This document shows positions 26,601-44,347 of a stretch of DNA of 64,000 bases, in pieces. Location: positions 2,974-66,973 of the forward strand of contig JAFSEA010000046.1 in assembly GCA_017435965.1 (NCBI GenBank). Direction: 5' to 3'. Position numbers and translations under genes: made by a program. How positions within the stretch are numbered: the first letter of the stretch is position 1; every line of letters begins with the position of its first letter. The DNA comes from Oscillospiraceae bacterium. GTDB lineage: Bacteria > Bacillota > Clostridia > Oscillospirales > JAAYXM01. The notes beneath the pieces were generated by a model. That model was not told where the DNA came from and made no database searches. It saw only the letters and a list, made by a program, of their open reading frames with translations.

Positions 26601-29600
26601 ACCCTCAATGGCGGTGGGGAGCGTGAGCTTGCCACAATTTCCTTTGACATTCCCGAAATTATGGTAAAGGGCGATGGCGGACTTATCGCACCCATAGGAA
26701 CAATGAGTGACGGTACTGCCTTCTCCGTAAAAGACGGATATATTTTCTCAAGCGATAACGAAGATGTGCTTTATGTAAACCGTGAAACGGGAGAATATAC
26801 TGCAAGTGGTGCAGGTGTTGCAACGGTTACCGTTTCTTATGATATCGGAAGAATGATAACCTCCGAGAAAAAGGTTGAGGTTATTGAAGGCGCGGCGGCA
26901 GGCAAGCTGTTTATCTATGATTTTGCAGAAGCAATCCCCGAATATGGAACAGATAAGGCATTTTCCGAGCTTTCAAGCGATGATGCGAGCGGTGCATATC
27001 AATTTGCATCGGCAAGTCAGAGTGGAGTGGGTACTCAGATTCAATACAGAGACACATTCATAAATCTTGGAAAAGGTGAATGGTTCGCCTTTGAAATTGA
27101 CATCCCCGTATCGGGAATATATTCGATAAATCAGAGATATGGCAAATACAACAACTCAACGGGTGCTCTTGAAGCATACATTATTCCGAAAAACGGAAAC
27201 TTTGATATCAGCACCATCAATAACCTTGATGCAACCGGCACACAGAGCTGTTTTGACGGTGATGCATCCGAATATTCGGAAAGTGCAACAGTTTCCGACT
27301 TCGGAGTAGATTTCTTCGAGGCTGGCAAATACTATGTTGTTTACAAGGCTAAATATGGTAGAGCAATGTTTGGAAATCTCATACTTGACGGAAGAAACAC
27401 ATTCAAGAAGCTCATTGTATCTGCTCCGAAGAGTATAGGCGTTGGTGAGCGTGTTGAAATAGGCATAGAGGCAAAGTCTCTTGATATGACAACAATCGAC
27501 ATAGAAACCCTCAATTTGAAGAGTCTTTCATCTGTTCAATTTGCCCTTACAACAGAAATCGGTGACAACAACGAATGTTTTGTCTATGGTGAAAATGAGG
27601 GTGCTTCCGAGATTACAATCACGGCAGATGACGGTGAATTCTCCGATTCAAAGACAGTTGAGATTAAAGTAATTGACTCAAGTGAAGTTCAAAATGTCGA
27701 AATTGATATTTCCGATTATATCTATGTGAGAGCTTCCGAAAACATCAAATTTATCGCTCATATGGGAAGCGGAAAGACTATAGAAATACCGGATGAGACC
27801 TATGAAATCATAGCATCGGAGCCTGAAGGTGCAGGTGTGGTTTCGGGAAATTCCATTACCGGAAATGCAGAAGGAAAGATAACTTTAAAGGCAAGTGCAG
27901 ATTTCAAGGGTGAAATGAGAACTGCCGAAAAGGAAATAGACATTCTTGAGGGAATGTCAAAGCAGGCTCCCACATACTACACCTATGAGATGCGCGAAAA
28001 CGTTAAAAAGAATACCGAAAAGTATTCCTGGGTACGAAGTGAAGTAAATGCGAAAAAAGCAGATGCCGACATCGCTTTAGAGAACCTTGACGCATATTAC
28101 GATATGATAATCGGTGAGGGAATTCCGAGATCAAGAAGTATGAAGACGAAAGGTCATCCCGAAATTGATAATTGTCCTTACTGCGGAGAATATTATCAAT
28201 TTGCGTGGAAATATGATTTTCTCAATCGTCCGTGGAAGGCTCAGTGCCCGGGTTGCAAACGTTTCTTCCCTTCAAATGATTTTGAAAGCTTTATGAAGCT
28301 GGGACTTGATGAACAGAAATATTACGATGTTGACAGAGCAAGACAAGCACATCACGAGATGCTTTTTCACAAGGGCGGAGAAGAATGTACCTGTGAGAAA
28401 CCCGAAACGCCCTATTCCGAAGAGTGGTATGAGTTCTACGGATATGGAAATGAGGAAGGATATCTCTACAACAAGCTTTATAAAGAAGTCGGAAGCGAAA
28501 ATTCAAGTGTGGAGCTCCTTCCCAGCGAAAAGGCCGAGCGCTGGTGCGTTGATGACGGCTTCGGATACTACACAGGAAGAGTTTTCAATACAGGCGTAAA
28601 GGAAATGTATTGCCCGATAGCATTATATAACTATTCTTTGTTACCGGGAATTTCAAACAGAATAAGCTCCCTCGGAATGGCTTATGTATACACGGGAGAG
28701 ACAAAATACGGCGTTGCGGCGGCAATACTTTTAGACCGACTGGCAGACGTTTACCCGAGCCATGATGCCGATTCCTTTGACACCGGTGCATTCCAGATAA
28801 CAGATGGAGGAACGGGAAAAGGAAAAATACAGGGTCTTATTCAGGATGCATATTTCGCAAAGGGCTTTGCTCTGCGTATCGATGAGGTGTTCCCCATCCT
28901 CAAGGATGAGGCCGCCTGCAATCAGGTTATTCAGTATCTGAGCCCGAAAGCAGATGCAATGGGTCTTGAAAATAAGAAGAAAACCGCAGAGGATATATGG
29001 AGAAACTGGGAAGAGAATATTCTTCTTGAGAATTTTGAGGCGGCAAAGCTTTATAAGGTCGGAGGTAACTTCGGCACATACCAGGCTGCCATTGCGGCAA
29101 CTGCGCTTGTTCTTGACAAGAAGCCCGAATCCGATGAGATGATGGATTGGTGCTTCAGAAGCGGTGGAGTTGTTTATCCCCAGAACAGCGAAACGGGAAC
29201 CTACTACAACACAGGTGGAAACATCAATGCCCAGATTGTTGATGAAGTTGACCGTGACGGTCTGGGAACAGAATCCTCCGCAAGCTACAACTGTATGTGG
29301 TGGGAAAAGCTTATAAATATTGCAGAAATGTCTGCAAAATACGGTGATCCGAAATATGATCTTTATCAGAATGTAAAGTTCCTCAAAATGCTGGAGGCAT
29401 TTTCCGATCTCGTAATGACAAACTCCCACACAGTTCATATCGGTGACTGTTCTTCGGGTATCGCATCAGCTACACTCCTCGGAAATGTAAAGCTTCTCTC
29501 CACGATATTCCCGTATGTAAAATACACACCTATGGCTGAAAAGATTGCAAAGTATATAGCATTATATTACAACTACAATCTTGACGGCTTCAGAGAAAGT

Positions 29601-32165
29601 GTTTTTGCGGAAAATCCGGAAGGTCTCGGCGAGGAGATTATGAGCTTTGTCGAAAATGAAGACGGATTCACGGAAAGCAAAATGCTTGCAGGATATGGCT
29701 TCTCGGTGCTTCGTGCAGGTAAGAATTATAAATCCGTGAGCGATTCAACCGAAAATAATAACCTCCGTGACTTCTGGATTTACTTTGGTGGTGCTCAGTC
29801 TCACAGACACCTTGATGCACTCAATCTCGGTATCGAGGCATATGGTCTCAACATAGCTCCCGACCTTGCATACCCCGTAGATGCCACAGTAAATGCAGAG
29901 CGTATGCAATGGACGAGCACAACCCTTTCTCATAACACCGTAACCGTTGACGGACAGCAGCAGAAGAACATCACTCTCCCCGGAAAACCGTTACATTTTG
30001 ATGATTCGGGCATGGTAAAGGTTCTTGATACATCTGTTCCGGAAGTATATGAGGCAACATCGGAATACAGACGAACGGTTGTTATGATTGAAGCGGACGA
30101 CGACATAAGCTATGGCGTTGACTTCTTCCGTGTCGTTGGCGGAAATGAGCATATCTACAGCTTCCACGCACTCAGCGGTGACGATGCCTCCGTTGTTGAC
30201 GGACTCACACTTGTTCCGCAGGTTGATGAGCCGCAGAGTGACTGGACAAGTGAAGACACAAGCTCCTATGCAGGTGCTGACATCAAATACGGTCCTGACC
30301 CGAATCCCATGAAAGACTACAACTACGTCACATATTATCCGAGAGGAACAACGTGGCTCCGCGATGTACGTCGCTCCGATGATGTTGTAAATGACTTTAC
30401 GGCTGATTTCAAGATAACAGACTATAACCGTGTGATAAAGGACAACAAGGATATTCACTTAAGCCTCACAATGGTAAACGATTTTGAGCTTTCTGAGGTT
30501 GCATTTGCAAAGGGTAAAGTTCCTGAAAGAGCAACCAACAAGAATATTCCTTCACACCTTGAGTATATGCTCGCAAAGCGTGAAGGAAAGAACCTCGACA
30601 GCTTGTTTACCGCAGTATATCAGCCGTATAAGAAGGAAGCATATATATCATCGGTTGAACAGATTGTCCCTGAGATAATCAGCGGAACAGAGAAAAACGG
30701 CGATATCGCAAAGGCTGTAAAGGTTACCCACACAAACGGCAGGGTTGATTATATCATCTATGCCACAAACGATGAAGTAACGTATCAGCTTGAAAACAAC
30801 GAAGCTCTGACATTCAGCGGTTTTGTGGGCGTATGGACATTAAATGCAAACCGTGAGATTACATATTCCTATGTCCTTGGCGGAGAAGGCGATGTAACAG
30901 GAAAGATTTCAGGCTTCACGGAAGGGCTCTCCACCAATAACTACATTGATATAACACCGGATAAGGCAGTTTCCCCTGAAAGTCTTGCAGGAAAGTATAT
31001 CTTTATTGAGCACGATGGAGTGGGAAATGCCGCATATGAAATACTTTCCGCAGAAAAGAAAGCAGATGGAGATATCCGTCTTGATATCGGAACAGTAACA
31101 ACAGTTCGCAAGTATATGGATGCAAAGGATTTCGACAAGGGTTATGAATATAACATTGCAAAGAAACAGAAGTTTGTGATTTCAATGCCTGTCATATCGG
31201 ATTCGGCTCCCGTATTTGAAACATATGACGGTGGCGTTGCCGGCGTAAATAGTATATACGAGAGAAAGTTTACGGCAACAAGCTCACTGTCGGGAACAGA
31301 AATTGAGTATATCGGAAGAACTCTCCCGAGAGGTGCCACCATTGATTCGGAAACGGGACTCTTCACATGGAAACCCGCTTCTTCGCAGGTTGGAGATAAC
31401 CACGTTGCCATAACTGCAAGAGATTCTGACGGACGTGAAACAACCATACATATCACCATAACGGTTTACGGTTCAACCTCCGGCGGAAGCATCGGCGGTG
31501 CAGGTAGCGGTGGAACAGGCACGACCACAATACCTCCGGCTGAAAAGGAAGAAGAAAAAGAACCTTCAACCGATGTGGAAAACGGCGGTTCCGACGTTCC
31601 GCAAACTCCGGATTCGGAAAATGTCCGCTTCATAGACCTCGCCTCCCACGCATGGGCCGAGGATGCAATCAACTCTCTTGCAGATGAAGGCATTATAAAG
31701 GGCACAAGCGAAAATACCTTCTCTCCCGGAAACAACATAACAAGAGCAGACTTTGCAATTCTTCTTGTGCGTGCATTCAAGCTTTCTTCCGAAAACACAG
31801 AGAACTTCTCTGATGTCAAGGCTTCCGATTACTTTGCAAGTGAGCTTGCAATAGCACGAAATGAAGGACTTGTCGGCGGAATCGGTGATAATAAGTATGC
31901 ACCATACAACAACATCACCCGTCAGGATATGATGGTTATAGTTTACCGTGCACTTAAATCAATGGACAAACTTGTAGGGGTGGATATCATCCGCCCGGAA
32001 AACGAGGATTTTGAAGATGTAGCAGACTATGCAAAGGAAGCGGTTTCGGTCCTCATAGGTGCAGGTTTAGTCAACGGAAAGAACGGGAAAATCGCTCCCA
32101 CCGACTTCACAACCCGCGCAGAAGTTGCGGTACTTATCAAACGTATTCTCGAATATACCAAGTAA
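23637..32165 (+). CDS. Giant SLH-anchored heparinase II/III-type surface protein, paralog C (2842 aa)
   Basis: RBS GGAGGAG; signal peptide MKRFISTLLVLCMVCSFVPTIGA. Five unassigned modules alternate with Ig-like domains. Core carries CPYC...CPGC, HRHLDALNLG, PDLAYP and SHNTVTVDGQQQ. Ends with a He_PIG-like domain, a Gly-rich linker and three SLH repeats. Confidence 0.9.
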   Translation: MKRFISTLLVLCMVCSFVPTIGAEPAEASKSGISVVYDWGTQMKTETENDPAPLKDAAFLSQFTFDSSHNLWKYDSQQSWSTVTWRYGNYVQFNRSGGGLWMVFEIYVPKTGMYTLEQKYAKFGGSQSDINVYMIPKENGAAFTTADMKDANKVLTLDCKGTSGGIVGDIATTDKELSSGYYYVAYLQVKTADGTNVALFGDLTLNGGEGKAVTEITSVSAPAEVKVGATGSVTAEVYYSDLTSGSATAGDVTYESDNTDVLEINEATGAYTAKASGVATVTAKSGILQKSIEITVGDVERSGISAVYDWGKQMNPGSDNGSLKDTTFLSQFTFDRSHNLWKYDSQQSWATVTWRYGDYVQFNRGGGGLWMVFEIYVPKKGAYTLRQKYAKFGGSQSDINVYMIPKENGAAFTTADMKDANKVLTLDCKGTSGGITGDTETTVKELREGNYYVAYLQVKTADGTNVALFGDLTLNGGSGKVATSINSVSIPSDVRMGTTGTATAEVYYSDLTSGPGDNVTFESSAPDVLEINATTGAYTAKAGGVATVTATVGNISKSIEVKVGNVEKSGISVVYNYSAQMPLRTGNDTASVSDMEKFTFDSSHGLWAYAAYSGSDVRFRNKSTIQLNSNNYWVAMEGYVPKSGAYNIEQKYSTYPGSGTLDVYIIPKGDNTSYNASLINGVSPTLSQNCDGENGNFVALSTPAIKENVYLDAGYYYIVYKSNGGRAIFGNLTLNGGEGRELVDFEVVKPDFIAEGEAGEVSVVAYYSDATSENYAGEVSYATEDGDILNIDENGAYEAISSGTAVVTVEVGGLKKDVTFDIRGKSGITVIYDYAKELPLSSSRQTTEFDLGLFSFENSKGLWAYAGHNGGDIRFRNGKIFQLAEKNYWFVMEIYVPKSGMYNLEQEYTTYPGSGTLDVYVLPKGENTSYSDTLIKEKAPTFSQSCEGADKAFTALSEPSIKENVYFDNGYYYIVYKSNGGRAMFGNLTLNGGGERELATISFDIPEIMVKGDGGLIAPIGTMSDGTAFSVKDGYIFSSDNEDVLYVNRETGEYTASGAGVATVTVSYDIGRMITSEKKVEVIEGAAAGKLFIYDFAEAIPEYGTDKAFSELSSDDASGAYQFASASQSGVGTQIQYRDTFINLGKGEWFAFEIDIPVSGIYSINQRYGKYNNSTGALEAYIIPKNGNFDISTINNLDATGTQSCFDGDASEYSESATVSDFGVDFFEAGKYYVVYKAKYGRAMFGNLILDGRNTFKKLIVSAPKSIGVGERVEIGIEAKSLDMTTIDIETLNLKSLSSVQFALTTEIGDNNECFVYGENEGASEITITADDGEFSDSKTVEIKVIDSSEVQNVEIDISDYIYVRASENIKFIAHMGSGKTIEIPDETYEIIASEPEGAGVVSGNSITGNAEGKITLKASADFKGEMRTAEKEIDILEGMSKQAPTYYTYEMRENVKKNTEKYSWVRSEVNAKKADADIALENLDAYYDMIIGEGIPRSRSMKTKGHPEIDNCPYCGEYYQFAWKYDFLNRPWKAQCPGCKRFFPSNDFESFMKLGLDEQKYYDVDRARQAHHEMLFHKGGEECTCEKPETPYSEEWYEFYGYGNEEGYLYNKLYKEVGSENSSVELLPSEKAERWCVDDGFGYYTGRVFNTGVKEMYCPIALYNYSLLPGISNRISSLGMAYVYTGETKYGVAAAILLDRLADVYPSHDADSFDTGAFQITDGGTGKGKIQGLIQDAYFAKGFALRIDEVFPILKDEAACNQVIQYLSPKADAMGLENKKKTAEDIWRNWEENILLENFEAAKLYKVGGNFGTYQAAIAATALVLDKKPESDEMMDWCFRSGGVVYPQNSETGTYYNTGGNINAQIVDEVDRDGLGTESSASYNCMWWEKLINIAEMSAKYGDPKYDLYQNVKFLKMLEAFSDLVMTNSHTVHIGDCSSGIASATLLGNVKLLSTIFPYVKYTPMAEKIAKYIALYYNYNLDGFRESVFAENPEGLGEEIMSFVENEDGFTESKMLAGYGFSVLRAGKNYKSVSDSTENNNLRDFWIYFGGAQSHRHLDALNLGIEAYGLNIAPDLAYPVDATVNAERMQWTSTTLSHNTVTVDGQQQKNITLPGKPLHFDDSGMVKVLDTSVPEVYEATSEYRRTVVMIEADDDISYGVDFFRVVGGNEHIYSFHALSGDDASVVDGLTLVPQVDEPQSDWTSEDTSSYAGADIKYGPDPNPMKDYNYVTYYPRGTTWLRDVRRSDDVVNDFTADFKITDYNRVIKDNKDIHLSLTMVNDFELSEVAFAKGKVPERATNKNIPSHLEYMLAKREGKNLDSLFTAVYQPYKKEAYISSVEQIVPEIISGTEKNGDIAKAVKVTHTNGRVDYIIYATNDEVTYQLENNEALTFSGFVGVWTLNANREITYSYVLGGEGDVTGKISGFTEGLSTNNYIDITPDKAVSPESLAGKYIFIEHDGVGNAAYEILSAEKKADGDIRLDIGTVTTVRKYMDAKDFDKGYEYNIAKKQKFVISMPVISDSAPVFETYDGGVAGVNSIYERKFTATSSLSGTEIEYIGRTLPRGATIDSETGLFTWKPASSQVGDNHVAITARDSDGRETTIHITITVYGSTSGGSIGGAGSGGTGTTTIPPAEKEEEKEPSTDVENGGSDVPQTPDSENVRFIDLASHAWAEDAINSLADEGIIKGTSENTFSPGNNITRADFAILLVRAFKLSSENTENFSDVKASDYFASELAIARNEGLVGGIGDNKYAPYNNITRQDMMVIVYRALKSMDKLVGVDIIRPENEDFEDVADYAKEAVSVLIGAGLVNGKNGKIAPTDFTTRAEVAVLIKRILEYTK
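23724..27393 (+). repeat. Tandem array of five (unassigned ~190-aa module + Ig-like domain) units, period ~770-815 nt
   Basis: Unit starts are marked by KSGI[ST]V[VI]Y at about 23724, 24538, 25338 and 26107, with a diverged fifth at about 26893. Each module ends with FGNLTLNGG, FGDLTLNGG or FGNLILDG. Confidence 0.85.
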
Positions 32166-33915: not shown

Positions 33916-35847
33916 ATGAAAATTATGGTTTGCCACGTAGGCTTAAATGAAACGGTGGAGTTTGCATCGGAAGAGCTTCGCCGATACCTTTACAAGATAG
34001 ACAAAACCATCGAAGTTGAAATCACCTCGTATGATACATATAATCCAACACGAAATGATGCCATTTGGCTCATTGTCGATCCGGCACTTGCACCTGAAGT
34101 TTCGGATCCTTCAATGGATGATGCTTTTCGCATTACTATAAACAACAACACAGGTATGATTGCAGGAACAAATCCCATATCGGTTCTTATCGGTGTGTAC
34201 AGTCTTCTTAAGAAACTTGGATGCAAATGGATTCGCCCCGGTCGTGACGGAGAAGTTATTGAAGAGAAGATACTCTCTCCTCTCAATTTCAATTATGAAG
34301 AAAAGGCGGCTTACCGTTTCAGGGGCATTGACCCTGCCGTAGGCACATCTCTTCAGAGAAACATTGACCTGATTGACTGGCTTCCCAAAGAGGGAATGAA
34401 CAACCATTTCAAAGAAATGCTTTCTCCTGAAAAGGGATATAAAAAATACAAGGAATATGAAGACTTTACCGACGAGGATTGCATGGCTACCTTCAAAACA
34501 ATCGTCCGTGAGATGAAAAAGAGAGGAATCAAACGTCATGGAGTGGGTCACGGTTGGCATATGGAAGCAATCGGATTTCACGATCATTCAGATTGCTGGA
34601 AACTTTCTGATGATGACCTCACCGAAGAGCAACATTCAATGCTTGCTCTCCGTGACGGAAAGCGCAATCTGTATCTCGGTCGCAACCTTTTCGGCACACA
34701 GCTCTGCTATTCTCAGGATAAAATCCGTGATTCAATCGTAGGGCAGATTGTGGATTATCTCGGGGAGCATCCCGAGATTGATTATCTGCATTTCTGGCTT
34801 GCAGACGGTTGTAACAACCATTGCGAATGTGAGGAATGTCAGAAACACAGACCATCAGACTGGTATGTAATGATGCTTAACGACCTTGACAGACGTCTTA
34901 CGGAAGAAGGAATCAAGTCACGGGTTGTTTGCCTTATTTATGTTGACCTTTTGTGGGAGCCTGTTGAGTTTTCAATAAACAATCCCGACAGATTCATTCT
35001 TATGTTTGCGCCCATCACAAGAGAGTATGATACAAGCTATTCAGATTTTGATAAGCCTGCCGAGAAGATGCCTTATGTCCGCAATAAGCTTGTTTGGCCG
35101 GCTTCTGCAGCTGAAAATATCGCATATCTCCGTGATTGGCAGGAAAAGCAGATTAAAGGCGATTCATTCCTCTTTGATTATCATCTTATGTGGAATCAGT
35201 ATAAAGACCCAAGCTTCCGCAATGTTTCAAGAGTTGTTTATGAAGATATGTATAACCTCAAAAACCTTGGACTCGGCGGAAATATATCCTGCGAAGTATT
35301 CACAGGTCAGATTCCCAATGATTTCCCCAGAAGAATTATGGCAAGAACACTCTGGAACAGAGATGTTGACTATTACGAAGAAGAAAAACAGTGCTACGAG
35401 GAAACTTACGGATCGGGTGCAGACAAAGCAGCCGAATATCTTGCAAAGCTTGCAGATGTATTCTCTTTAATGTATCGCTATTATAAAGAACCCGAAAACA
35501 CACGTGAAGAACAGAAGGCATTTGCCGCAAATGTTGAAAAAATTGTAAATGACTTTAAGCCTGTAATCAAAAAGTACCTTGAGGCTGACCTTCCCCGTGC
35601 TCAGCACATTTCCTGGGAGCTTCTTGATGCACAGACGGAATATAACATTGAGCTTGCACGGGCATATTGCGCAAAATACATCGGTGAAGAGAAAACTGCG
35701 GATGAGCATCTTGAGAAGTTCAATAAAATCTGCGACGATATTGACGAAAAATATGGCTACTACTTCAATGCCAATCAGGCAAAGTATTCCATAAAACAAT
35801 TTTACAATGAGATAACAAGAGAGGGTCCCAGAGTTATTATTCAATAA
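33916..35847 (+). CDS. DUF4838-like putative glycoside-hydrolase-related protein, copy 1
   Basis: The N-terminus FASEELRRYLYKI resembles the GH20b/GH67N-like lead-in of DUF4838 proteins. Conserved block HFWLADGCNNHCECEECQKHRPSDWYVMMLNDLD. Paralog of 40088-42031. Family assignment is from memory. Confidence 0.55.
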   Translation: MKIMVCHVGLNETVEFASEELRRYLYKIDKTIEVEITSYDTYNPTRNDAIWLIVDPALAPEVSDPSMDDAFRITINNNTGMIAGTNPISVLIGVYSLLKKLGCKWIRPGRDGEVIEEKILSPLNFNYEEKAAYRFRGIDPAVGTSLQRNIDLIDWLPKEGMNNHFKEMLSPEKGYKKYKEYEDFTDEDCMATFKTIVREMKKRGIKRHGVGHGWHMEAIGFHDHSDCWKLSDDDLTEEQHSMLALRDGKRNLYLGRNLFGTQLCYSQDKIRDSIVGQIVDYLGEHPEIDYLHFWLADGCNNHCECEECQKHRPSDWYVMMLNDLDRRLTEEGIKSRVVCLIYVDLLWEPVEFSINNPDRFILMFAPITREYDTSYSDFDKPAEKMPYVRNKLVWPASAAENIAYLRDWQEKQIKGDSFLFDYHLMWNQYKDPSFRNVSRVVYEDMYNLKNLGLGGNISCEVFTGQIPNDFPRRIMARTLWNRDVDYYEEEKQCYEETYGSGADKAAEYLAKLADVFSLMYRYYKEPENTREEQKAFAANVEKIVNDFKPVIKKYLEADLPRAQHISWELLDAQTEYNIELARAYCAKYIGEEKTADEHLEKFNKICDDIDEKYGYYFNANQAKYSIKQFYNEITREGPRVIIQ

Positions 35848-35916
35848 TTAAACATAGTTGTTCGGGGAAAAGTTTGTAGTATTCACAAAACTGATTTCAT
35901 ACAAAAATGAGGATTG

Positions 35917-37707
35917 ATGATGAAGCTGAGATATAAAATATACAAAGAAAAAGTATACGGATGCTTTACCGGCAAAAGCGTAGGTGGTACATTGGGGATG
36001 CCGTTTGAAGGACAATTGGACGTAGACTCGGTTACATATTATGATCCTGTACCAACCGAAATGGTGCCTAACGACGACTTGGATTTGCAGGTGGTCAATC
36101 TTGAAACGCTTCTTCGCACAGGTTTTCCGGTTTCCCGTCATCATATCGGCGAAATCTGGTTGCACCATATGGAAGATAATGCCCCTGATGAATATAGTGT
36201 CGGCATAGCAAACCATAAGCTCGGCATCAGAGGACCGCTTTCGGGGCAGTATCGCAATAAGTTCCACAGCGGTATGGGTGCCGCGATTCGCAGTGAACTT
36301 TGGGCGTGTGTTGCTCCTGCGAATCCAAAACTTGCAGCACTTCTCGCAAGAGAAGATGCCTGCACTGATCACACAGGTGACGGCATATATACGGAAATGT
36401 TTCTCGCTGCTGTTGAAAGTCAGGCATTTATAGAGAACGATTTGGAAAAACTCATCCAAACGGGACTTGAGTTTGTGGACAAAGAAAGCAAGCTTTATAA
36501 AGTCTTTGGAGATGTTATTCGTTTGTATAAAGAAACGAAGGATGTCTATGCAGTAAAAGAGTATATATTGAGACAATATCCTTGTGATAACTGGACAGAT
36601 GTAACGATAAATGTTTCGTTTATTCTTTTGGCATTAATAGCTTCCGATGGCGACTTCGACAAAGCAATTTGCACAGCTACTTCATTGGGATATGATGCTG
36701 ATTGTACTGCCGCTACAGTCGGTGCAATTTTTGGAATTATGAAACCTGACAGTATTGACGAAAAGTGGACAAATCCGATAGGCGATGCTTTGGTTCTTTC
36801 GCCTTGCATTGTTAATATGCATAGCTTTGATACAATAAGTGAGTTTTGCGAAGTGGTAATGTCTGTTGCGAATTATGCACAAGAGTATTATCAAACAGGA
36901 ATACAGTTTGAAGGCGCTGACGGTTTTGCTGATATACGTCTTGCAGATAGCTGGACGGATGATTACAAAAGTCTTTATGATTGGAAAATCGGAGCAAAGG
37001 AATCCCTCCTGACGGGCTTGCCTTGCCTGATGAGCTTGGTCTATCCGGAAGAGGTTGCTGCCGAACCGGGTAAAAGTAAGGAATACACCTTGAAATTATG
37101 CGCAGATAAAGACATATCGGGTTCTGTTAAATTGTTTGTGCCGGAAAAGTGGCAGGTATCTTCGGAAACGTTCTCGTTCAATCTTTCAAAAGGTGAAACA
37201 AAAGAAATTTCGTTCTTTGTTAAACCTGATGCAGAACAAGGGTTGAGATGTCAGAAAAATATTTTAACGATGCGTTTTTGCATAAATGGTGTTACTTTTG
37301 TGCAAGAGGCAGGACTTCCTGTTTCAACTCCGTGGATGGTTACTGCTGCCGATGGCAGAGAGTACGTATATGAAGCAACGTCCATTTACTTCCCGGTTCC
37401 GTCGGGTGAGTACAGATATAAAACGCGCGTAAACTCACCGATACAAAAAAATGTTCGTATGGCATGCAACGGAACAAGACCGTTTATCGTTAAATTGAAT
37501 GGTGAAACAGTGTATGAAGGCGATGGTTCTTTCTATGTACCTGCATTTCATCGCGGAGATACCTGGACAAACGTTGTGTTGAATACCGGAGCATCAAATG
37601 AGATAGAAGTTGTTTTCCCTGAATATAAAGAGGGCGAGTTCTTCTTTGGTTTCGGAACAACCTTCGGATGTGCAACATGGTTAGATACGATTGAAAGAAC
37701 GCTCTGA
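35917..37707 (+). CDS. ADP-ribosylglycohydrolase (ARH) family protein with ~250-aa C-terminal extension
   Basis: ARH motifs are present: GCFTGKSVGGTLGMPFEG, NDDLDLQ and LGYDADCTAATVGAIFG. The extra C-terminal region after about aa 340 looks beta-rich. Start is ambiguous among TTG 35914, ATG 35917 and ATG 35920. Confidence 0.75.
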   Translation: MMKLRYKIYKEKVYGCFTGKSVGGTLGMPFEGQLDVDSVTYYDPVPTEMVPNDDLDLQVVNLETLLRTGFPVSRHHIGEIWLHHMEDNAPDEYSVGIANHKLGIRGPLSGQYRNKFHSGMGAAIRSELWACVAPANPKLAALLAREDACTDHTGDGIYTEMFLAAVESQAFIENDLEKLIQTGLEFVDKESKLYKVFGDVIRLYKETKDVYAVKEYILRQYPCDNWTDVTINVSFILLALIASDGDFDKAICTATSLGYDADCTAATVGAIFGIMKPDSIDEKWTNPIGDALVLSPCIVNMHSFDTISEFCEVVMSVANYAQEYYQTGIQFEGADGFADIRLADSWTDDYKSLYDWKIGAKESLLTGLPCLMSLVYPEEVAAEPGKSKEYTLKLCADKDISGSVKLFVPEKWQVSSETFSFNLSKGETKEISFFVKPDAEQGLRCQKNILTMRFCINGVTFVQEAGLPVSTPWMVTAADGREYVYEATSIYFPVPSGEYRYKTRVNSPIQKNVRMACNGTRPFIVKLNGETVYEGDGSFYVPAFHRGDTWTNVVLNTGASNEIEVVFPEYKEGEFFFGFGTTFGCATWLDTIERTL

Positions 37708-37779
37708 TAAAACAGATAATGAAAAGTTAAAATGCAATCCGACAGATGATTTTTACAAAACAAAATAAGGAGGAAAATC

Positions 37780-38673
37780 ATGGAAACAAGATGGTTACAT
37801 ACAACAAGTGAAGATTTTAAAAAGCTCCGTGAAGAATCGGAAAGAGTGTGCGTTATTCCTATGGGATGCCTTGAAAAACATTCCGTTTATCTTCCTCTGG
37901 GCACCGATGTTATCATAGCAAATAATATGGCATATGATGCATCTCAGCTTGAAACAGTATGTGTTTTCCCTGATTTCGCATTCGGTGATGTTCCCTGCGG
38001 TGACCATGCGGCTCGCCCTGACGGAACAATCGCCCTTGATGTTCGCATACAGATGCTTTTGCTGGAGAATCTTTGTGGCGAGATTTCCGCAAACGGCTTT
38101 AATAAAATTCTCGTTGTAAATGGTCACGGCGGAAACCTTCCGTGGCTCCAGACCTTTGCAAGAAATCTCGGTTGCAAGCCTCATAAATATGTTTTTGCAT
38201 ATGTGGATGTTCCCGATACAGTTCCGCATCAGATGGCAGAGTTCCTCCTTGAAAAAGGAAGCGGTTCTATTCCGGAGCTTACGGCGGAGGATGAAGAGCT
38301 TATAATCAAATACTACAAGGCTGATATGCAGCTTGGCCACGCCTGCATGCAGGAGGCGGCATACACTATGGAATATGCCCCCGAAAGCGTACATCTTGAC
38401 CGCCTTGGAAGAGAAGACGGCTCTCCGAGAGACCTACCCGAGCTTCAGAAGCTTCTTGACCTTAAAGTGCGCCTTTCCATGGGCGGTTGGGATCATTTAT
38501 ACCCCGACTGGTATGCAGGGGATGACCCATATGGACTCAATGAGCGTATAGCACGCGCCGCAACAAGAATTGCCACGGAAAAGCTTGCAGAGGTCTATAA
38601 GGCATTTAAGGAAGATAAGTTCCTTCTCGGACGTGCAAAAGAAAACTACAAGGACAAAACTTGGTTTGAATAA
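37780..38673 (+). CDS. Creatininase-family amidohydrolase
   Basis: RBS AAGGAGG. Family signature IPMGCLEKHSVYLPLGTDVIIA ... DGTIAL ... ILVVNGHGGN. Confidence 0.8.
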   Translation: METRWLHTTSEDFKKLREESERVCVIPMGCLEKHSVYLPLGTDVIIANNMAYDASQLETVCVFPDFAFGDVPCGDHAARPDGTIALDVRIQMLLLENLCGEISANGFNKILVVNGHGGNLPWLQTFARNLGCKPHKYVFAYVDVPDTVPHQMAEFLLEKGSGSIPELTAEDEELIIKYYKADMQLGHACMQEAAYTMEYAPESVHLDRLGREDGSPRDLPELQKLLDLKVRLSMGGWDHLYPDWYAGDDPYGLNERIARAATRIATEKLAEVYKAFKEDKFLLGRAKENYKDKTWFE

Positions 38674-38697
38674 GGAAACACAAAGGGAGAATTTTCT

Positions 38698-40032
38698 ATG
38701 AAAACAGGTTTTTCAAAAGTTTGCATCAATCCGCCTTACGGTGCGCCGATGGTGGGTTATTATGAAGCTCGTTTTGTTAAGGGAATTGAGCAGAATCTTT
38801 ATGCAAGGGCTGTTGCGTTTGATGACGGATGCAAAAAGGCTGTTGTTATTGCCGTTGATGTTATCGGCCTTACCTTGGATTTCTGCAATATGGCAAAAGA
38901 TGCTATTGCCGCTTCAACGGGAATTGAGAAAGATGCAATTTTTATAAACTTCTCACATACACACACAGGCCCTCTTGTGGGAGAAGACTTCGCCTCGGAA
39001 ACAAAAAGCTCCGATGCCTATAATGATTTTCTCATCACAGGTATCCGTGATGCGGCAATATATGCACTTGACGATCTTTGTGAGTCGAGATTTGAGGTAG
39101 GGGATGCCGAGGCAAAGAACATCTCATTTATCCGCCGTTACAGAATGAAAGACGGCGGAGTTGTGACAAACCCCGGTGCTTATAACGAGAATATTGACCA
39201 TCCGCTGGGGACTCCCGATGAAACCGTGAAGCTCGTTAAAATAGTGAGAGACGGTAGCGACGATATATTCATAATCAATTTCGGAACACACGCCGATGCG
39301 GTAGGCGGAGAATATATAAACTCGGATTATATGGGATATGCGTGTTCCACCCTTGAAAAGGCAATCCCCGGAATAAATTGCATTTTCCTTCTCGGTCCTC
39401 AGGGAGATGTCAATCACATCAACATCAACCCAACAAAAGGCGAATGGAATATTCTCGAGGATAAAGAAGCCGTGTGTCCACATAGTGTGCGACACTCTCA
39501 GCATATGGGAAGAGTTATTGCAGGTGCAGTCCTTTCGGTATGCTCCGTTACGGAGGAGATAAACGCCGATAGGATTTCGTATGGTGTTAAAGAAGTACAG
39601 CTTCCCTCATACCGGGAAAATGACAAGCTTGATGAAGCAAGAAGAATCTGGACACTCCACGAAAGCGGAAAAGATGACGAGCTTCCATACAAAGGAATGG
39701 AGCTCACAACGGTTATTGCGGAAGCAAAGCGAATTGTCGGGCTTGAAAACGGTCCGGAATCTTTCCCGTTCCTTATTTCGGCGTTAAGAATAGGCGAGCT
39801 TGTTTTTGCCGGAATCGGCGGTGAGCCGTTTACGGAAATAGGTGTAAGGATATCGGATGCATCGCCCTTTAAAAACACAATAGTATGTTGCCTTACAAAC
39901 AATAGTGGAAGCTATATTCCAACAAAAAGCGCATACGATGAAGGTGGATATGAGGCAAGAGCCTCTGTTCTTATGCCCGGCGGTGATGATATCATCGTTG
40001 AAGGTGTGGTCGAGCTTTTAAAAACACTTTAG
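38698..40032 (+). CDS. Neutral/alkaline ceramidase-N-terminal-like hydrolase, copy 1
   Basis: The N-terminus KTGFSKVCINPPYGAPMVGYY...LYARAVAFDDG matches the ceramidase_alk-type lead motif. Paralog of 42047-43378. No signal peptide. Confidence 0.65.
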   Translation: MKTGFSKVCINPPYGAPMVGYYEARFVKGIEQNLYARAVAFDDGCKKAVVIAVDVIGLTLDFCNMAKDAIAASTGIEKDAIFINFSHTHTGPLVGEDFASETKSSDAYNDFLITGIRDAAIYALDDLCESRFEVGDAEAKNISFIRRYRMKDGGVVTNPGAYNENIDHPLGTPDETVKLVKIVRDGSDDIFIINFGTHADAVGGEYINSDYMGYACSTLEKAIPGINCIFLLGPQGDVNHININPTKGEWNILEDKEAVCPHSVRHSQHMGRVIAGAVLSVCSVTEEINADRISYGVKEVQLPSYRENDKLDEARRIWTLHESGKDDELPYKGMELTTVIAEAKRIVGLENGPESFPFLISALRIGELVFAGIGGEPFTEIGVRISDASPFKNTIVCCLTNNSGSYIPTKSAYDEGGYEARASVLMPGGDDIIVEGVVELLKTL

Positions 40033-40046
40033 TTATAAAACCGAAT

Positions 40047-40089
40047 AACAAACGCCTTGTGAATTGACACAAGGCGTTTGTTATTTTTT
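40047..40089. terminator. Bidirectional rho-independent terminator between convergent operons
   Basis: Perfect 15-bp stem AACAAACGCCTTGTG / CACAAGGCGTTTGTT with a 6-nt loop, followed by ATTTTTT. Overlaps the stop of the minus-strand gene. Confidence 0.85.
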
Positions 40090-42031
40090 AGAGAATTACA
40101 ACTGTTTTCTTATCGGCAGGGCCGCTTATTTTGTCTGCAATACTTACGCAGGCAAGATAAAGGTCAAAATAACGCTCAATATAAATCTCGTATTCGGAAA
40201 ATTTGTGGAGAAGGCGTTTCATAGTTGCTGATGCCATAGAATTGTTGCCCAAAGCCAGATAGCTTATGAACTCTGCCATTCCCGAAATCCATTCTGTGTG
40301 GTATTCGATGATTTTCCAGGAAACCGCACGGGCACGGATGGGATTGTTTTTCTCACTTGAAACAAGTGGTGCGAAGTCTTTGAGAAGCTCTGCAACCTTC
40401 TCTTTGCAATCGCTCATTTCAAGATTATAGTGCTTGCCCTTTTCGGGATTTTGTGACTTAAAGCCTGAAATATATTCAAAGTCAAAAATATCACGGACAC
40501 GCTCAAGATATCCAACAACCTCACGCCACTTATCGCCAAAGGCGTGGGAGAAATAGTCCTCAACAAGTTCATCGAAGCTTCTGCTTTTGTCGTAAAGTGC
40601 TTCGGCATATACAAAAAAGGCAAAGCCCGTGGGGAAAAAGCTTCTCTGTGAGCCGTCCTCAATTATTCCCGAAAGACCTCTTGAATGAAGGGCGTGGATA
40701 TCATCATATAAAAGCTTTCCGAGATACATACCACTCTGGTCTATATACTGCTGCATCCAGAAATGATATTCGTAGCAGAAACAGTCACCCTTCCAATGTT
40801 CCTGCCATCGGCTTAAGTATCCGAGGCATTCTGACATACCCTCGGGAGGTGTGTTTTTGTTGAGACTGAAGGGTTTTGTCGATGCAACATCGGGCGTTTC
40901 TCCGTAGGTTTCGGTATAGAGACGGAAAATCGGGGCATAGAGCATTGTGAAACGCTTTGTGTTGTTAAGCTTTTCTTCAACAGGAGCCCAAAATGTTTCC
41001 GTGTATACGATAAACACAAGGTGGGTATCAAGCCCTCTGCGCTCAAGCTCTGCATCAATATCGTTGAGAAGCATTACATACCAGTCGGAGGGAGTTTTCT
41101 TCCGACATTCACTACATTCACAATGGTTGTTTATGTTGTCGGCGAGCCATATATGAAGAAAATCAACGTTGTTCTGGGTTTCTGCATAGTCGGCAACGTA
41201 GTTTGCCACTACCCGACGTGCCTTGGGATTTGACATACATATGTTTGTGTCGGAGGGGCGGCAGAAAACGCCACGCTTTCCGTTGACTTCGGCAAGAAGC
41301 ATAAGAGTATCTTCGGGAATGTTTTCCTGAACACCACGGAGGCTTCCGTCAAGTCCGAAGGGAAGGCAGGTCCAGCCGTGACCCATATCGTGAAAGTGAA
41401 GTCCGCGCTTTTCAATTTCCACCTCGCATTGTCTCTTCCATTGGAGAATTGTTTCACGGGTTACGGGCTCAGGCTCACGGAAGGTGTTGTGGACATGGTT
41501 ATAATACTGGTCGTAGTAATAGGTGGGGATATCAAATTCCAGCATAAATGTGTTAAGTCCTATTTTCGGAGTGAAGTCAATGGCTTCAAGCATATTGCTC
41601 TGGAATTCCGAGCCCTCGTTGCATTGACCACGATAGCGATGGTCAGCAAGATGACGATAATCAACGGGAGGGAGATTCTCAAGAAGCGGAATGTGCTCAC
41701 CGTCAACTCCGGGGAAAAGCCAACGACAACCGCACTCACGGAGATAGCGATAGACGGCGATAAGAAGTGCGCCATAGTTTGTGCCGGCAATGATTCCGCC
41801 TTTTTCGGTTGTCTTTATATAGATGATATCATCAAGTGCAGGTATCTTTGCATCTGAAATATCAAGTCCGAAGTCCTGCATAAGACCGAGTTTGAAGCCA
41901 TCCGTTTCATCGGCAGATGCATTTATCGGAATATTGCCTCCCCTCGGAAGCATCATACGAAGATATTTTTTAAGCTCCTCTGCCGCAAAAATTGCGGTGG
42001 GGTGTGCTGTGAGAGTTGAGATTGAATACAT
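40088..42031 (-). CDS. DUF4838-like putative glycoside-hydrolase-related protein, copy 2
   Basis: N-terminus FAAEELKKYLRMM; conserved block LHIWLADNINNHCECSECRKKTPSDWYVMLLNDID. Same length class as copy 1 (647 vs 643 aa). Confidence 0.55.
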   Translation of the reverse strand: MYSISTLTAHPTAIFAAEELKKYLRMMLPRGGNIPINASADETDGFKLGLMQDFGLDISDAKIPALDDIIYIKTTEKGGIIAGTNYGALLIAVYRYLRECGCRWLFPGVDGEHIPLLENLPPVDYRHLADHRYRGQCNEGSEFQSNMLEAIDFTPKIGLNTFMLEFDIPTYYYDQYYNHVHNTFREPEPVTRETILQWKRQCEVEIEKRGLHFHDMGHGWTCLPFGLDGSLRGVQENIPEDTLMLLAEVNGKRGVFCRPSDTNICMSNPKARRVVANYVADYAETQNNVDFLHIWLADNINNHCECSECRKKTPSDWYVMLLNDIDAELERRGLDTHLVFIVYTETFWAPVEEKLNNTKRFTMLYAPIFRLYTETYGETPDVASTKPFSLNKNTPPEGMSECLGYLSRWQEHWKGDCFCYEYHFWMQQYIDQSGMYLGKLLYDDIHALHSRGLSGIIEDGSQRSFFPTGFAFFVYAEALYDKSRSFDELVEDYFSHAFGDKWREVVGYLERVRDIFDFEYISGFKSQNPEKGKHYNLEMSDCKEKVAELLKDFAPLVSSEKNNPIRARAVSWKIIEYHTEWISGMAEFISYLALGNNSMASATMKRLLHKFSEYEIYIERYFDLYLACVSIADKISGPADKKTVVIL

Positions 42032-42046
42032 AATTTTACCTCCGTT

Positions 42047-43378
42047 TTATTCTTGTGCGAAAAAGAGATTATCAAGAACTTCTTTTCCTGTTTCCGTCAG
42101 TTTTTTTGCAGTCCCCTCTTTGTAACGTGCGCTTAAAACTTCATAGCCGCCGTCGGCATAGGTAGAGTCATTTGGGAAATATCCTTCATATCCGTTTGCA
42201 CAACAGGAAATGAAGGTCATTTTAAACTTTGAACTTTCCTTTATTCTGCGTCCGATATCGGTAAAGGGTTCGCCCGGCAGACCGAGAATTGCAAAATCTC
42301 CGATTGAGAGACCCGAAACGTAAAGCTCTTTAAAGTCGGGAGCATTTTCGAGCTTTACCATTCTCGTTGAAACAACAAGATTGAGAATAGGGATGAGATC
42401 GCCTTTCTGCGGAATTTCATCGTCTCTTCCGCTTTCGTGAAGGTCTACTATAACACGGGCTTCACGAAGCTCTTCTTCCGTTGCCTTGTTGTGGGGGACA
42501 TTTGTGTTTTTCTGATATGCACGGATGGGAGTAGCTTTTGTTTTCTTTGCCATTGCACGGAGTGACATTGCCGTTCCTGCAATGGTGCGCCCCATATGAC
42601 GGGAAAATTCATAGCCTGCTTTCAGCTCACCGTCGGGAGTTTCAACGTTTATGTGATTTGTATCACCCTGAGCACCGTTTATGTACATACAAAGGGAGTT
42701 TTCAACTGCCGCTTCATACGTTCTGCGCACAAATCCGGGATAGTCTGCGGAAAGCTCAAGACCTCCCACAACATCGGGATGAACCTGGAAGTTTATGATT
42801 GCAATTTCGGGAGCATTTTCACGGACAAAGTTTATGAGTGCAACACGTCTGTCGGCATCACCGTCGGGGAAGGTTTCAACGCTTGTGTCAAACTTTCCCG
42901 TGTTTGCAACGAGCTTTCCATCCTTTGTTTTGCGACGGCGGATAAAGGAAATATCAACGGGAGTTTCCGCTGAATTTGTGTACATCTCGGAAGGCTTCAT
43001 ATCGTCAATCGCCATTTTAGCCAACCCCGAAAGCTTGTCTGTAAGAGACAACATAAGCTCATGATACCTTTCATCGGAAAGATCCGTTACGGGGTATGCA
43101 AGATGAGTGTGGGTGCAGGAGATAAAGACCGCTTCACGGGAAAGCCCATATCGCTTTGCAATTTCATCGCGGACAAGGTCGCAGAACTCCTGCCTGAGAC
43201 CCAAAACATCCGCACTAATTATAACGGCAGTTGTTTTTCCGTCATTTACTGCAACGGCTGTTGCAAGAAGGGGATCGAGTATACCTTCCGAAAGTCTTTC
43301 GTGATAATAGCCGGACATATTATGTCCGATGGGCGGTGTGATGTCAATACGGGCAAATCCTGCTTTTAAATTTTCCAT
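42047..43378 (-). CDS. Neutral/alkaline ceramidase-N-terminal-like hydrolase, copy 2
   Basis: N-terminus KAGFARIDITPPIGHNMSGYYHERLSEGILDPLLATAVAVNDG. 443 aa vs 444 aa for copy 1. Lies 15 nt upstream of DUF4838-like copy 2. Confidence 0.65.
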   Translation of the reverse strand: MENLKAGFARIDITPPIGHNMSGYYHERLSEGILDPLLATAVAVNDGKTTAVIISADVLGLRQEFCDLVRDEIAKRYGLSREAVFISCTHTHLAYPVTDLSDERYHELMLSLTDKLSGLAKMAIDDMKPSEMYTNSAETPVDISFIRRRKTKDGKLVANTGKFDTSVETFPDGDADRRVALINFVRENAPEIAIINFQVHPDVVGGLELSADYPGFVRRTYEAAVENSLCMYINGAQGDTNHINVETPDGELKAGYEFSRHMGRTIAGTAMSLRAMAKKTKATPIRAYQKNTNVPHNKATEEELREARVIVDLHESGRDDEIPQKGDLIPILNLVVSTRMVKLENAPDFKELYVSGLSIGDFAILGLPGEPFTDIGRRIKESSKFKMTFISCCANGYEGYFPNDSTYADGGYEVLSARYKEGTAKKLTETGKEVLDNLFFAQE

Positions 43379-43391
43379 ATGGAGTGCCTCC

Positions 43392-44177
43392 TTATAAATC
43401 CTCTGTTTGTATATTTGCCGCCATTTGGCTCTTTTTATATAAACCGGGAGTTATATTCATATACCTTTTAAACATTTTGTTGAAATAATAAACGTCTGTG
43501 AATCCACAAATTTCCGACACCTGCTCAATGGTATATATCCCCGTGAGAAGAAGATTTGATGCGTGGTCAATCTTTTTGCGGAGGATATACTTTCTCGGAG
43601 TCTCGCCGTAATACTCTTTAAAAAGAGTTGTGAAGCGGCGCTCACTCAGGGAGCACATATCCGCAAGAGCCGAGTTTAAAAGGGTACTTGTGAGATAATT
43701 TGTTTCTATATAGTCAAATGCCTTTTGCAAAACGGAGCTTTTGGGGGAAATATGATGCTCTTTCTTTTGCATACCGTCAACAATGTGAAACACTTCATAA
43801 AGGGCGGATAAACAATAATAGAGGTTTGAAGTCTCGTTGAGGTTGTTGTTTGCAAGAAGCTTCTTGAAAATCGTTCTGATTCTTAGATTGTTTTCGCAAT
43901 CAATCGAAAAACTCTCCATATCCGTATCACCCGTGAAAACAACACAAATGCTTTCTGTGGGTTCTTCGAGAACTACATCATAAGCATCGTTTTTTGACAA
44001 AAACAGAAGTGTGTCTTCCTTGTTGCGGAAAGAGTTGTTCTTTGTTTTATGAATGTTTTTTCCCGAGGTGTGATATGCAAGATAATGGGCACTCCGGGGT
44101 GCAGGAGCGTGCCAGGAAGGTTCATCGCTGTAAAAAAGGTGAATGCTTATGACATTTTCAATATACAGTTTCTCCAT
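43392..44177 (-). CDS. AraC family transcriptional regulator (first gene of the minus-strand operon)
   Basis: C-terminal AraC HTH (LADMCSLSERRFTTLFKEYYGETPRKYILRKKIDHA ... VSEICGFTDVYYFNKMFKRYMNITPGLY). Start chosen at MEKLYIE (GGAG 9 nt upstream). Confidence 0.8.
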   Translation of the reverse strand: MEKLYIENVISIHLFYSDEPSWHAPAPRSAHYLAYHTSGKNIHKTKNNSFRNKEDTLLFLSKNDAYDVVLEEPTESICVVFTGDTDMESFSIDCENNLRIRTIFKKLLANNNLNETSNLYYCLSALYEVFHIVDGMQKKEHHISPKSSVLQKAFDYIETNYLTSTLLNSALADMCSLSERRFTTLFKEYYGETPRKYILRKKIDHASNLLLTGIYTIEQVSEICGFTDVYYFNKMFKRYMNITPGLYKKSQMAANIQTEDL

Positions 44178-44347
44178 AGTCATCATCTCCGTATATAAAG
44201 GTAACACAAAAATACAAACAAAGTCAATGTATAATACGGATTTGCCGGGAATTATATTTCCGTTTTATACAAAAGTGCAATTTCGCACATTGAAATTCAT
44301 TATAAGTAAGTATAGACTTGTAATTAAGTGAGGAGTATTTCGCAAAA

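Follow-up and report, generated by a model that had tools for sequence, protein, structure and literature searches.

Two gene pairs that stand as mirror images on either side of a shared terminator raise a simple question: are they the two halves of a duplicated module, or did each pair come together on its own? We have addressed it for a 64,000-nucleotide stretch of DNA, referred to here as the window, from the genome of an uncultured gut Clostridium (contig C41:2974-66973 of a 2.65-Mb assembly that is 88% complete). One member of each pair belongs to the DUF4838 glycosidase family (D), the other to a family of short proteins with the ceramidase fold (C), and the copies in the window are designated D1, C1, D2 and C2. 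We can say with considerable confidence that these four genes are ancient paralogs from multi-copy families that were put together in two separate assemblies, not the halves of a duplicated module. Taken as a whole, the picture of two separately assembled operons in which D and C are functional partners acting on amino-sugar glycans appears to us reasonably probable. The central features are the following:

33916..35847, plus strand: D1, an open reading frame (ORF) of 643 aa with PF16126, a predicted cytoplasmic DUF4838-type (GH163/GH185-like) glycosidase
38698..40032, plus strand: C1, an ORF of 444 aa with PF04734, a predicted short cytoplasmic amidase of the neutral-ceramidase fold
40044..40085, both strands: bidirectional intrinsic terminator, a perfect 18-bp stem with a 6-nt loop
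40088..42031, minus strand: D2, an ORF of 647 aa with PF16126, a predicted cytoplasmic DUF4838-type glycosidase
42047..43378, minus strand: C2, an ORF of 443 aa with PF04734, a predicted short cytoplasmic amidase of the neutral-ceramidase fold
43392..44207, minus strand: AraC-family regulator with HTH_18 and HTH_AraC domains, at the head of the AraC-C2-D2 run

A first-pass annotation of this DNA had described the four genes as a module duplicated long ago and retained as a pair. Its description of the layout holds: the ORFs and their translations confirm the positions, strands and lengths of the four genes, AraC, C2 and D2 are tightly packed on the minus strand (gaps of 13 nt between AraC and C2 and of 15 nt between C2 and D2), and the two operons converge on the hairpin, which lies within the 55 nt that separate the stop codons of C1 and D2 and is flanked by T-runs on both strands. 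The moderate identity that had been estimated by eye was also borne out by BLASTP, with 31% between D1 and D2 over 611 columns (E 3e-91) and 36% between C1 and C2 over 451 columns (E 1e-94), both matches being far beyond chance. The mirror orientation around a hairpin does look like the product of a recent local inverted duplication or of a fold-back chimera formed during assembly, but we give practically no credence to such an origin. The proteins encoded by the copies are merely 31-36% identical to each other, while their orthologs in other species reach 78-87%. Moreover, positions 39795-43143 are covered without any difference by one contig from another sample, and the stretch from C1 through the hairpin to D2 is spanned by contigs from three other studies, belonging to strains that are ~96% identical. 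Since the same junction is found in independent metagenome assemblies, it is not an assembly artefact. The window sequence was present in gut and faecal metagenome runs, some of them from goat, sheep and cattle.

The paralogs found elsewhere in the genome argue against a privileged relationship between the window copies. The D genes number four, with single copies on contigs C25 and C78 in addition to the two of the window, and all of them are above the PF16126 cut-off in a six-frame search (31.4-54.2 bits); the C genes number about 15. The closest paralog of C1 is the copy on contig C72, at 66% identity versus 36% to C2, and C2 is 41-44% identical to the paralogs on contigs C15, C51, C24, C82 and C78, again versus 36% to C1. 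In the D family the differences are smaller and run in the same direction: D1 is 37% identical to the contig C25 copy, and D2 is 33% identical to each of the contig C25 and C78 copies, all above the 31% shared by D1 and D2. The window copies are thus not each other's nearest relatives, because each of them has closer paralogs elsewhere in the genome.

Phylogenies of both families (56 sequences in the C tree and 107 in the D tree) gave the same answer. In the C tree, C1 first joins the C gene that accompanies a D1 ortholog at locus L020 (78% identity, support 97) and then the contig C72 copy (support 100). C2 groups with 12 database orthologs (support 99), and this clade is sister to one that holds the five other paralogs from contigs C15, C51, C24, C82 and C78 (support 96). 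The deepest split of the D tree (support 100) separates D1 from D2, each accompanied by orthologs from other species; D1 clusters with orthologs at 87%, 81% and 73% identity, and D2, together with an ortholog at 78%, lies inside a clade of 26 D2-type sequences from several Clostridia families (support 100). The approximately unbiased (AU) test rejected a sister pairing of C1 and C2 (p 1e-43) as well as of D1 and D2 (p 7.5e-4), and it also rejected the grouping of all D-linked C genes in one clade (p 1.3e-8). The rejection of both sister pairings therefore excludes a recent or local duplication. The phylogenies proposed in the first-pass annotation as a check on co-duplication have pointed to independent origins.

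If the pairs had descended from one ancestral pair, linkage should be traceable among the orthologs, and we have therefore looked at their gene neighbourhoods. The plus-strand genes around D1 and C1 form a tight run made of the giant SLH-anchored protein, AP_endonuc_2, Amidohydro_2, D1, the ADP-ribosylglycohydrolase fold, the creatininase family and C1; these genes, and two more that are discussed below, are:

23637..32165, plus strand: giant SLH-anchored heparinase II/III-like protein (lyase C), with Pfam SLH, Hepar_II_III_C, Big_2 and He_PIG, heading the operon with D1 and C1
32192..32983, plus strand: xylose-isomerase-like TIM-barrel protein (AP_endonuc_2), a D1 neighbour conserved in loci L019 and L020
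33005..33901, plus strand: Amidohydro_2 protein, missing from the orthologous operon of the relatives (L019, L020)
35914..37707, plus strand: ADP-ribosylglycohydrolase-fold protein, missing from the orthologous operon of the relatives (L019, L020)
37780..38673, plus strand: creatininase-family amidohydrolase, between D1 and C1, conserved in loci L019 and L020
44348-46612: glycyl-radical enzyme (GRE) of the window
18017-19279: a GFO gene, 20 kb away from the D-C pairs of the window

The closest D1 orthologs (87% and 81% identity; loci L019 and L020) keep the order giant SLH protein, (solute-binding protein, SBP), AP_endonuc_2, D1, creatininase, C, and the C gene of L020 is 78% identical to C1. 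No C gene was found near the D1-type genes at 73%, 66% and 60% identity, which adjoin GFO and SBP genes or GalK, GalT and GH42 genes. The D1-C1 arrangement is common only to very close relatives, with D1 identity of at least 81%. The D2 ortholog at 78% occurs in two genomes of the same genus and in three metagenome contigs, without any PF04734 gene within 10 kb, and the same is true, over the same distance, of the D2 orthologs at 59% and 56%. Conversely, there is no D gene within 8 kb of the C2 orthologs at 62%, 58% and 57%, and the best relatives of C2 in the family scan (58% and 56%) come from genomes without any D gene. No organism other than the source one has so far shown the AraC-C2-D2 arrangement. 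Across 32 genomes of the bacterial family, none of the 16 D genes outside the source genome shares a contig with a C gene. With the orthologs of D2 and C2 unlinked and the D1-C1 linkage lost at D1 identities of 73% or less, both pairings are therefore evolutionarily shallow.

Some of these neighbourhoods deserve mention in their own right. At locus L013:6990-14271 the 78% D2 ortholog stands between a pair of GH95 genes and follows immediately after a GRE and its activase, so that in two related species (the window and L013) D2-type genes have different GREs as neighbours. A conserved link between D2 and a GRE was considered and rejected, since the enzyme behind the 78% ortholog is only 25% identical to the GRE of the window and a window-like GRE appears in none of 80 D2-type loci. 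The 66% D1-type genes at loci L021:1875-18580 and L111:1982-6834 stand beside genes for galactokinase and galactose-1-phosphate uridylyltransferase, and the one at L021 also stands beside two GH42 beta-galactosidase genes; these neighbours hint at a substrate of the Gal-HexNAc type for that subclade. In six genomes of the same genus (G015, G021, G022, G025, G026 and G028) full-length matches to C2 were found, several of them with one or two in-frame TAA or TGA codons, which may represent pseudogenes, assembly errors or alignments across tandem paralogs.

An ancestral D-C module that was duplicated long ago, with both daughter pairs (D1-C1 and D2-C2) kept and now diverged to 31-36% identity, would nevertheless account for some of the data. 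The two D genes, like the two C genes, are of near-equal length and similarly diverged, and the families are associated across genomes (see below). Along the same lines, and against the reading that we prefer, the three linked pairs of the genome are congruent in both trees (D2 goes with the D gene of contig C78 and C2 with the C gene of C78, apart from D1 and C1). A co-duplication of very great age would leave such a congruence too, although chance alone produces it one time in three. In addition, tree building used a 'quick' mode, long branches lead to several of the C rows, and many contigs are short, so that missing linkage is weak evidence in some genomes. Nonetheless, the D2 orthologs (78%, 59% and 56%) and the C2 orthologs (57-62%) are all unlinked to the partner family, and the best family-scan relatives of C2 sit in genomes that have no D at all. 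The partners of D2-type genes come from other C clades, in agreement with the AU rejection of a single D-linked C clade, the D1-C1 linkage is gone at 73% D1 identity and below, and the copy numbers of the two families are very unequal (4 D versus about 15 C). All this makes a duplicated module most improbable, and the proposal of an old duplication retained as a pair has to be given up in favor of two independent assemblies of old paralogs.

The third locus of the genome that contains both families (contig C78:46-22734; loci L003 and L010) encodes on one strand a GH4 protein, D, an Abhydrolase_7/glucuronyl-esterase-like protein, a 264-aa protein, a binding-module protein, a giant lyase-like protein and C. 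Such giants are a conspicuous component of this genome: there are 57 ORFs of at least 1800 aa, all related to the SLH-anchored heparinase II/III-like giants of the window, adding up to 453 kb or 17% of the 2.65-Mb assembly, an extreme investment in one protein type.

A way to approach the possible meaning of the pairs is to consider what the two proteins resemble. Beginning with D, the match of D2 to DUF4838 (PF16126) is weak but above the cut-off in hmmscan (33.5 bits, with a gathering score of 26.6 bits), and that of D1 is marginal, with 34.1 bits in the six-frame family search and no Pfam match by hmmscan at E up to 0.01; D1-type proteins may for this reason be left unnamed by annotation pipelines. 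The AlphaFold2 (AF2) model of D2 has a predicted local distance difference test score (pLDDT) of 94.5, and its top Foldseek matches are GH67, GH20, GH115, GH89 and GH84 (E 1e-13 to 1e-9, template modelling (TM) scores of 0.45-0.56, about 10% identity). The predicted architecture is GH20-like, with an N-terminal alpha/beta domain followed by a (beta/alpha)8 barrel. Searching the PDB with a single D sequence returned spurious cellulose-synthase matches only, and the family profile returned a weak match to the GH67 N-terminal domain only; the PDB holds no GH163 or GH185 structure and no close solved relative of D.

DUF4838 is the catalytic domain of the CAZy families GH163 and GH185 (PMC10570127). 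The former is represented by BT1035 of Bacteroides thetaiotaomicron, a surface endo-beta-GlcNAcase acting on complex N-glycans, and the latter by Sp_0475 of Streptococcus pneumoniae TIGR4, a cytoplasmic exo-6-sulfo-beta-N-acetylglucosaminidase that works by substrate-assisted catalysis and has Q174, H227, D309 and Y436 as key residues, with an E/Q alternation reported for Q174 (PMC10570127). Among 87 members of the D family, H218, D298 and Y422 (D2 numbering; H212, D297 and Y422 in D1) are invariant, and position 165 is occupied by E in 46 members and by Q in 41 (E165 in D2, E167 in D1), the alternation also described for Q174. The offsets of E165, H218, D298 and Y422 in D2 are consistent with those of Q174, H227, D309 and Y436, an equivalence that is positional and taken from the description of Sp_0475 (PMC10570127). 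No conserved Arg/Lys column that could be the counterpart of the sulfate-binding R633 was found near the C-terminus in the D alignments, and R633 itself is not conserved within its own sequence cluster (PMC10570127).

Four further residues, all Cys, are invariant in 87 of 87 members (C265, C304, C306 and C309 in D2; C264, C303, C305 and C308 in D1). Three of them make up a C-x-C-x2-C motif and the fourth lies about 40 residues upstream of it. Their codons are:

34705-34707, plus strand: C264 codon of D1, the fourth Cys
34822..34839, plus strand: C-x-C-x2-C codons of D1 (C303, C305, C308)
41105..41122, minus strand: C-x-C-x2-C codons of D2 (C304, C306, C309)
41237-41239, minus strand: C265 codon of D2, the fourth Cys

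Judging from their conservation, these residues probably form a Cys4 metal site, with zinc or Fe-S. The GH185 paper leaves such residues unmentioned and reports an unexplained effect of reductant on the kinetics of the enzyme (PMC10570127).

Sp_0475 and the D proteins have in common the DUF4838 domain (PF16126), a length of about 640-650 aa, and the lack of a signal peptide and thus a cytoplasmic location. The architecture predicted for D is shared as well: a (beta/alpha)8 barrel stands between an N-terminal alpha/beta domain and a helical C-terminal domain, and the fold neighbours are GH115, GH84 and GH20. The two differ in the R633 counterpart and the four Cys already described, and in their context, which is one of giant lyase-like surface proteins and amidohydrolases for D and includes a GH1 neighbour for Sp_0475. 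BT1035 shares with D the DUF4838 catalytic domain and the distant kinship to GH20, but it is located at the surface and carries a C-terminal F5/8 type C module that the cytoplasmic D1 and D2 lack. Inspection of the N-termini of D1, D2, C1 and C2 revealed no signal peptide in any of them. From folds and conserved residues, we infer that D is a cytoplasmic hexosaminidase-like glycosidase of the DUF4838 (GH163/GH185) type.

The C proteins match the N-terminal Ceramidase_alk domain (PF04734) weakly but above the cut-off (34.8 bits for C1 and 38.1 for C2, with a gathering score of 32.1 bits), and the family profile matches human neutral ceramidase (PDB 4wgk) at E 4.5e-17. The AF2 model of C2 (pLDDT 91.9) found neutral ceramidases only in Foldseek (TMq 0.71-0.74), the match extending over only about half of each ceramidase chain (TMt 0.49-0.53). 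The C2 residues H90, H92, R147, H200, E370, Y400 and Y412 are invariant in all 54 sequences and are aligned to the THTH, HP, PGE and Y...YE motifs in 4wgk; the zinc and catalytic set is likewise present in C1 (H87, H89, R146, H198, E376, Y406 and Y418). The zinc ligands among these residues (His, His, Glu and Tyr) we take to be those of the published ceramidase structures. Neither C1 nor C2 has a C-terminal Pfam domain, and the proteins end at 443-444 aa. The family is a large one, with 4008 clusters at 50% identity (E up to 1e-30) of about 440-aa proteins, and a literature search found no characterised member of this short bacterial PF04734 family.

Neutral ceramidases (human 4wgk; 2zws and 2zxc of Pseudomonas aeruginosa) and the C proteins thus share the fold of the catalytic domain, the H-x-H, His, Glu and Tyr zinc ligands, and the catalytic Arg and Tyr. 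The former are however 640-700 aa long, only 15-17% identical to C, and have a C-terminal immunoglobulin-like domain and a signal peptide, both of which C lacks. The C proteins also occur in up to about 15 copies per genome in glycan loci of anaerobic Clostridia, a setting in which ceramide is hardly to be expected as the substrate. Since the ceramidase fold, the zinc ligands and the catalytic residues are kept, C is predicted to be a zinc-dependent amide hydrolase; by its sequence and model it would work like a ceramidase-fold zinc amidase, not like a ceramidase in the strict family sense.

Do the two families belong together beyond the window? The first-pass annotation had proposed that the two folds act together, and they do co-occur in other genomes well beyond chance. 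Of 301 genomes sampled evenly across the order, 38 have D and 48 have C, with 28 genomes holding both, 10 D only, 20 C only and 243 neither (odds ratio 34, Fisher p 1.7e-18). For a closer view, 80 D2-type loci (46-62% identity to D2) from species-representative genomes were scanned with a hidden Markov model of the C family. A C gene lies within 10 kb in 12 of them, and in 8 (9 counting L095) it lies directly upstream of D on the same strand, in the order of C2-D2, when chance would be expected to give ~0.4 such adjacencies (an estimate that assumes about 5 C genes in about 2000 genes). The commonest neighbours of D2-type genes are GFO/IDH/MocA oxidoreductases (12 loci) and C genes (10-12 loci), all other clusters being present in 5 loci at most. 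One apparent neighbour cluster, a 723-aa product in 11 loci, was discarded as an antisense ORF of D itself.

Several gene orders recur. The order GFO-C-D-BNR propeller was found at loci L068, L074 and L099 and confirmed by Pfam, GFO-C-D at L072 and L075, and C-D at L045, L077 and L082; D-GFO-AraC-C was found at L026 and L029, and D-C in one genome of the order-level sample (G216). The C partners of D2-type genes are not orthologs of C2, and none of the three or more positions that they occupy in the C tree is with C2: seven of them make up a clade of their own (support 99) next to the contig C27 and C10 copies of the source genome, and the others lie elsewhere. On the D tree, the state 'C upstream' requires at least three changes. 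D and C have become neighbours repeatedly and independently in Clostridia, with different subfamilies involved and often with a GFO/IDH/MocA oxidoreductase. A functional partnership is better supported by different subfamilies coming together again and again in this way than it would be by a single inherited pair.

One of these arrangements, at L068:7576-13047 (and likewise L074 and L099), is a tight four-gene operon of GFO/IDH/MocA, ceramidase-like, DUF4838 and BNR genes, which sits opposite an apiosidase-like/DUF5060 gene. It resembles the window in that the same two families adjoin, C then D as in AraC-C2-D2, and in that all products, like the D and C of the window, are without signal peptides. 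It differs in that its C genes come from another clade (near the contig C27 and C10 copies) and its D genes from another D2-type subclade, and in its adjoining GFO and BNR genes; neither a GFO nor a BNR gene adjoins the D-C pairs of the window. At a further locus, L095:1171-16408, seven DUF4838-type genes stand in tandem on one strand with a ceramidase-like gene ahead of them, at the contig edge.

These associations lend themselves to another interpretation, in which D and C are not directly coupled and are simply common accessory enzymes of constantly reshuffled glycan loci, each acting on separate parts of different substrates. In the source genome, 11 of the 15 C genes have a giant lyase-like ORF within a distance of about 10 kb, with or without a D gene present, and the contexts of D2-type genes are very variable. 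Other observations likewise weigh against the partnership that we favor. Since about 85% of the D2-type genes lack a C gene at 10 kb or less, any partnership is facultative. The proximity of D and C within the genome is not significant (two of the three independent D loci near C, p about 0.08, on a baseline of 17% for genes near giant lyases). The co-occurrence statistic ignores phylogeny and lifestyle, and D and C are both found mainly in a few glycan-degrading families (f1, f17, f20 and f23). At the level of the proteins, D is likened to Sp_0475 and BT1035 by description, not by direct alignment. On the other hand, a mere co-residence does not readily explain why direct same-strand C-to-D adjacency, so far above the chance expectation, is found in at least 3-4 separate places of the D tree, why different C clades and gene orders recur (GFO-C-D-BNR, D-GFO-AraC-C, and D-C in G216), or why C is among the two most frequent neighbours of D2-type genes. 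We consequently regard the lack of any direct coupling as unlikely, though deserving serious attention, and the gene associations as tipping the balance modestly towards a real functional partnership. The earlier idea of two folds acting together survives in this weaker form: the association, with different C clades involved, makes a partnership plausible.

What such a partnership would do can be outlined tentatively. Oligosaccharides with amino sugars would be produced by the lyase-like giants of the surface and imported. D would then remove a terminal, possibly modified, beta-N-acetylhexosamine by substrate-assisted catalysis, as its GH185 and GH163 relatives do, and since this step needs the 2-acetamido group, D would have to act before its target residue is deacylated. 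C would afterwards hydrolyse the N-acyl amide, either on the sugar that has been set free or on what is left of the glycan, and oxidoreductases of the GFO type and TIM-barrel enzymes would process the products further. This particular sequence of D then C, like the substrate, is suggested by folds and conserved residues, and we propose it as a rather speculative possibility. The two operons could serve two different substrates, one being transcribed from the promoter of lyase C and the other headed by its own AraC. The first-pass annotation had suggested two related substrates or linkage variants handled under separate regulation; the two operons fit separate regulation, and the two substrates are plausible and unproven.

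An apparently mirrored duplicate module has thus turned out to be two independent assemblies, which calls for caution in drawing inferences at the operon level in genomes rich in glycan loci. The genes themselves are new members of known families, and the lead that they provide is that uncharacterised amidases of the ceramidase fold are recurrently paired with DUF4838 glycosidases, a group for which the earliest descriptions of activity date only from 2019-2023. If the partnership is true, it points to an undescribed de-N-acylation step in the catabolism of amino-sugar polymers by gut bacteria, and it offers a route to assign substrates to both families. In its widest and still doubtful form, the short ceramidase-fold proteins might be a missing family of glycan de-N-acylases that, with DUF4838 and GFO/IDH/MocA proteins, would form a recurrent, kinase-independent route for the breakdown of amino-sugar glycosides in gut Clostridia, and the two operons of the window would be two substrate-specific versions of it fed by the giant surface lyases.

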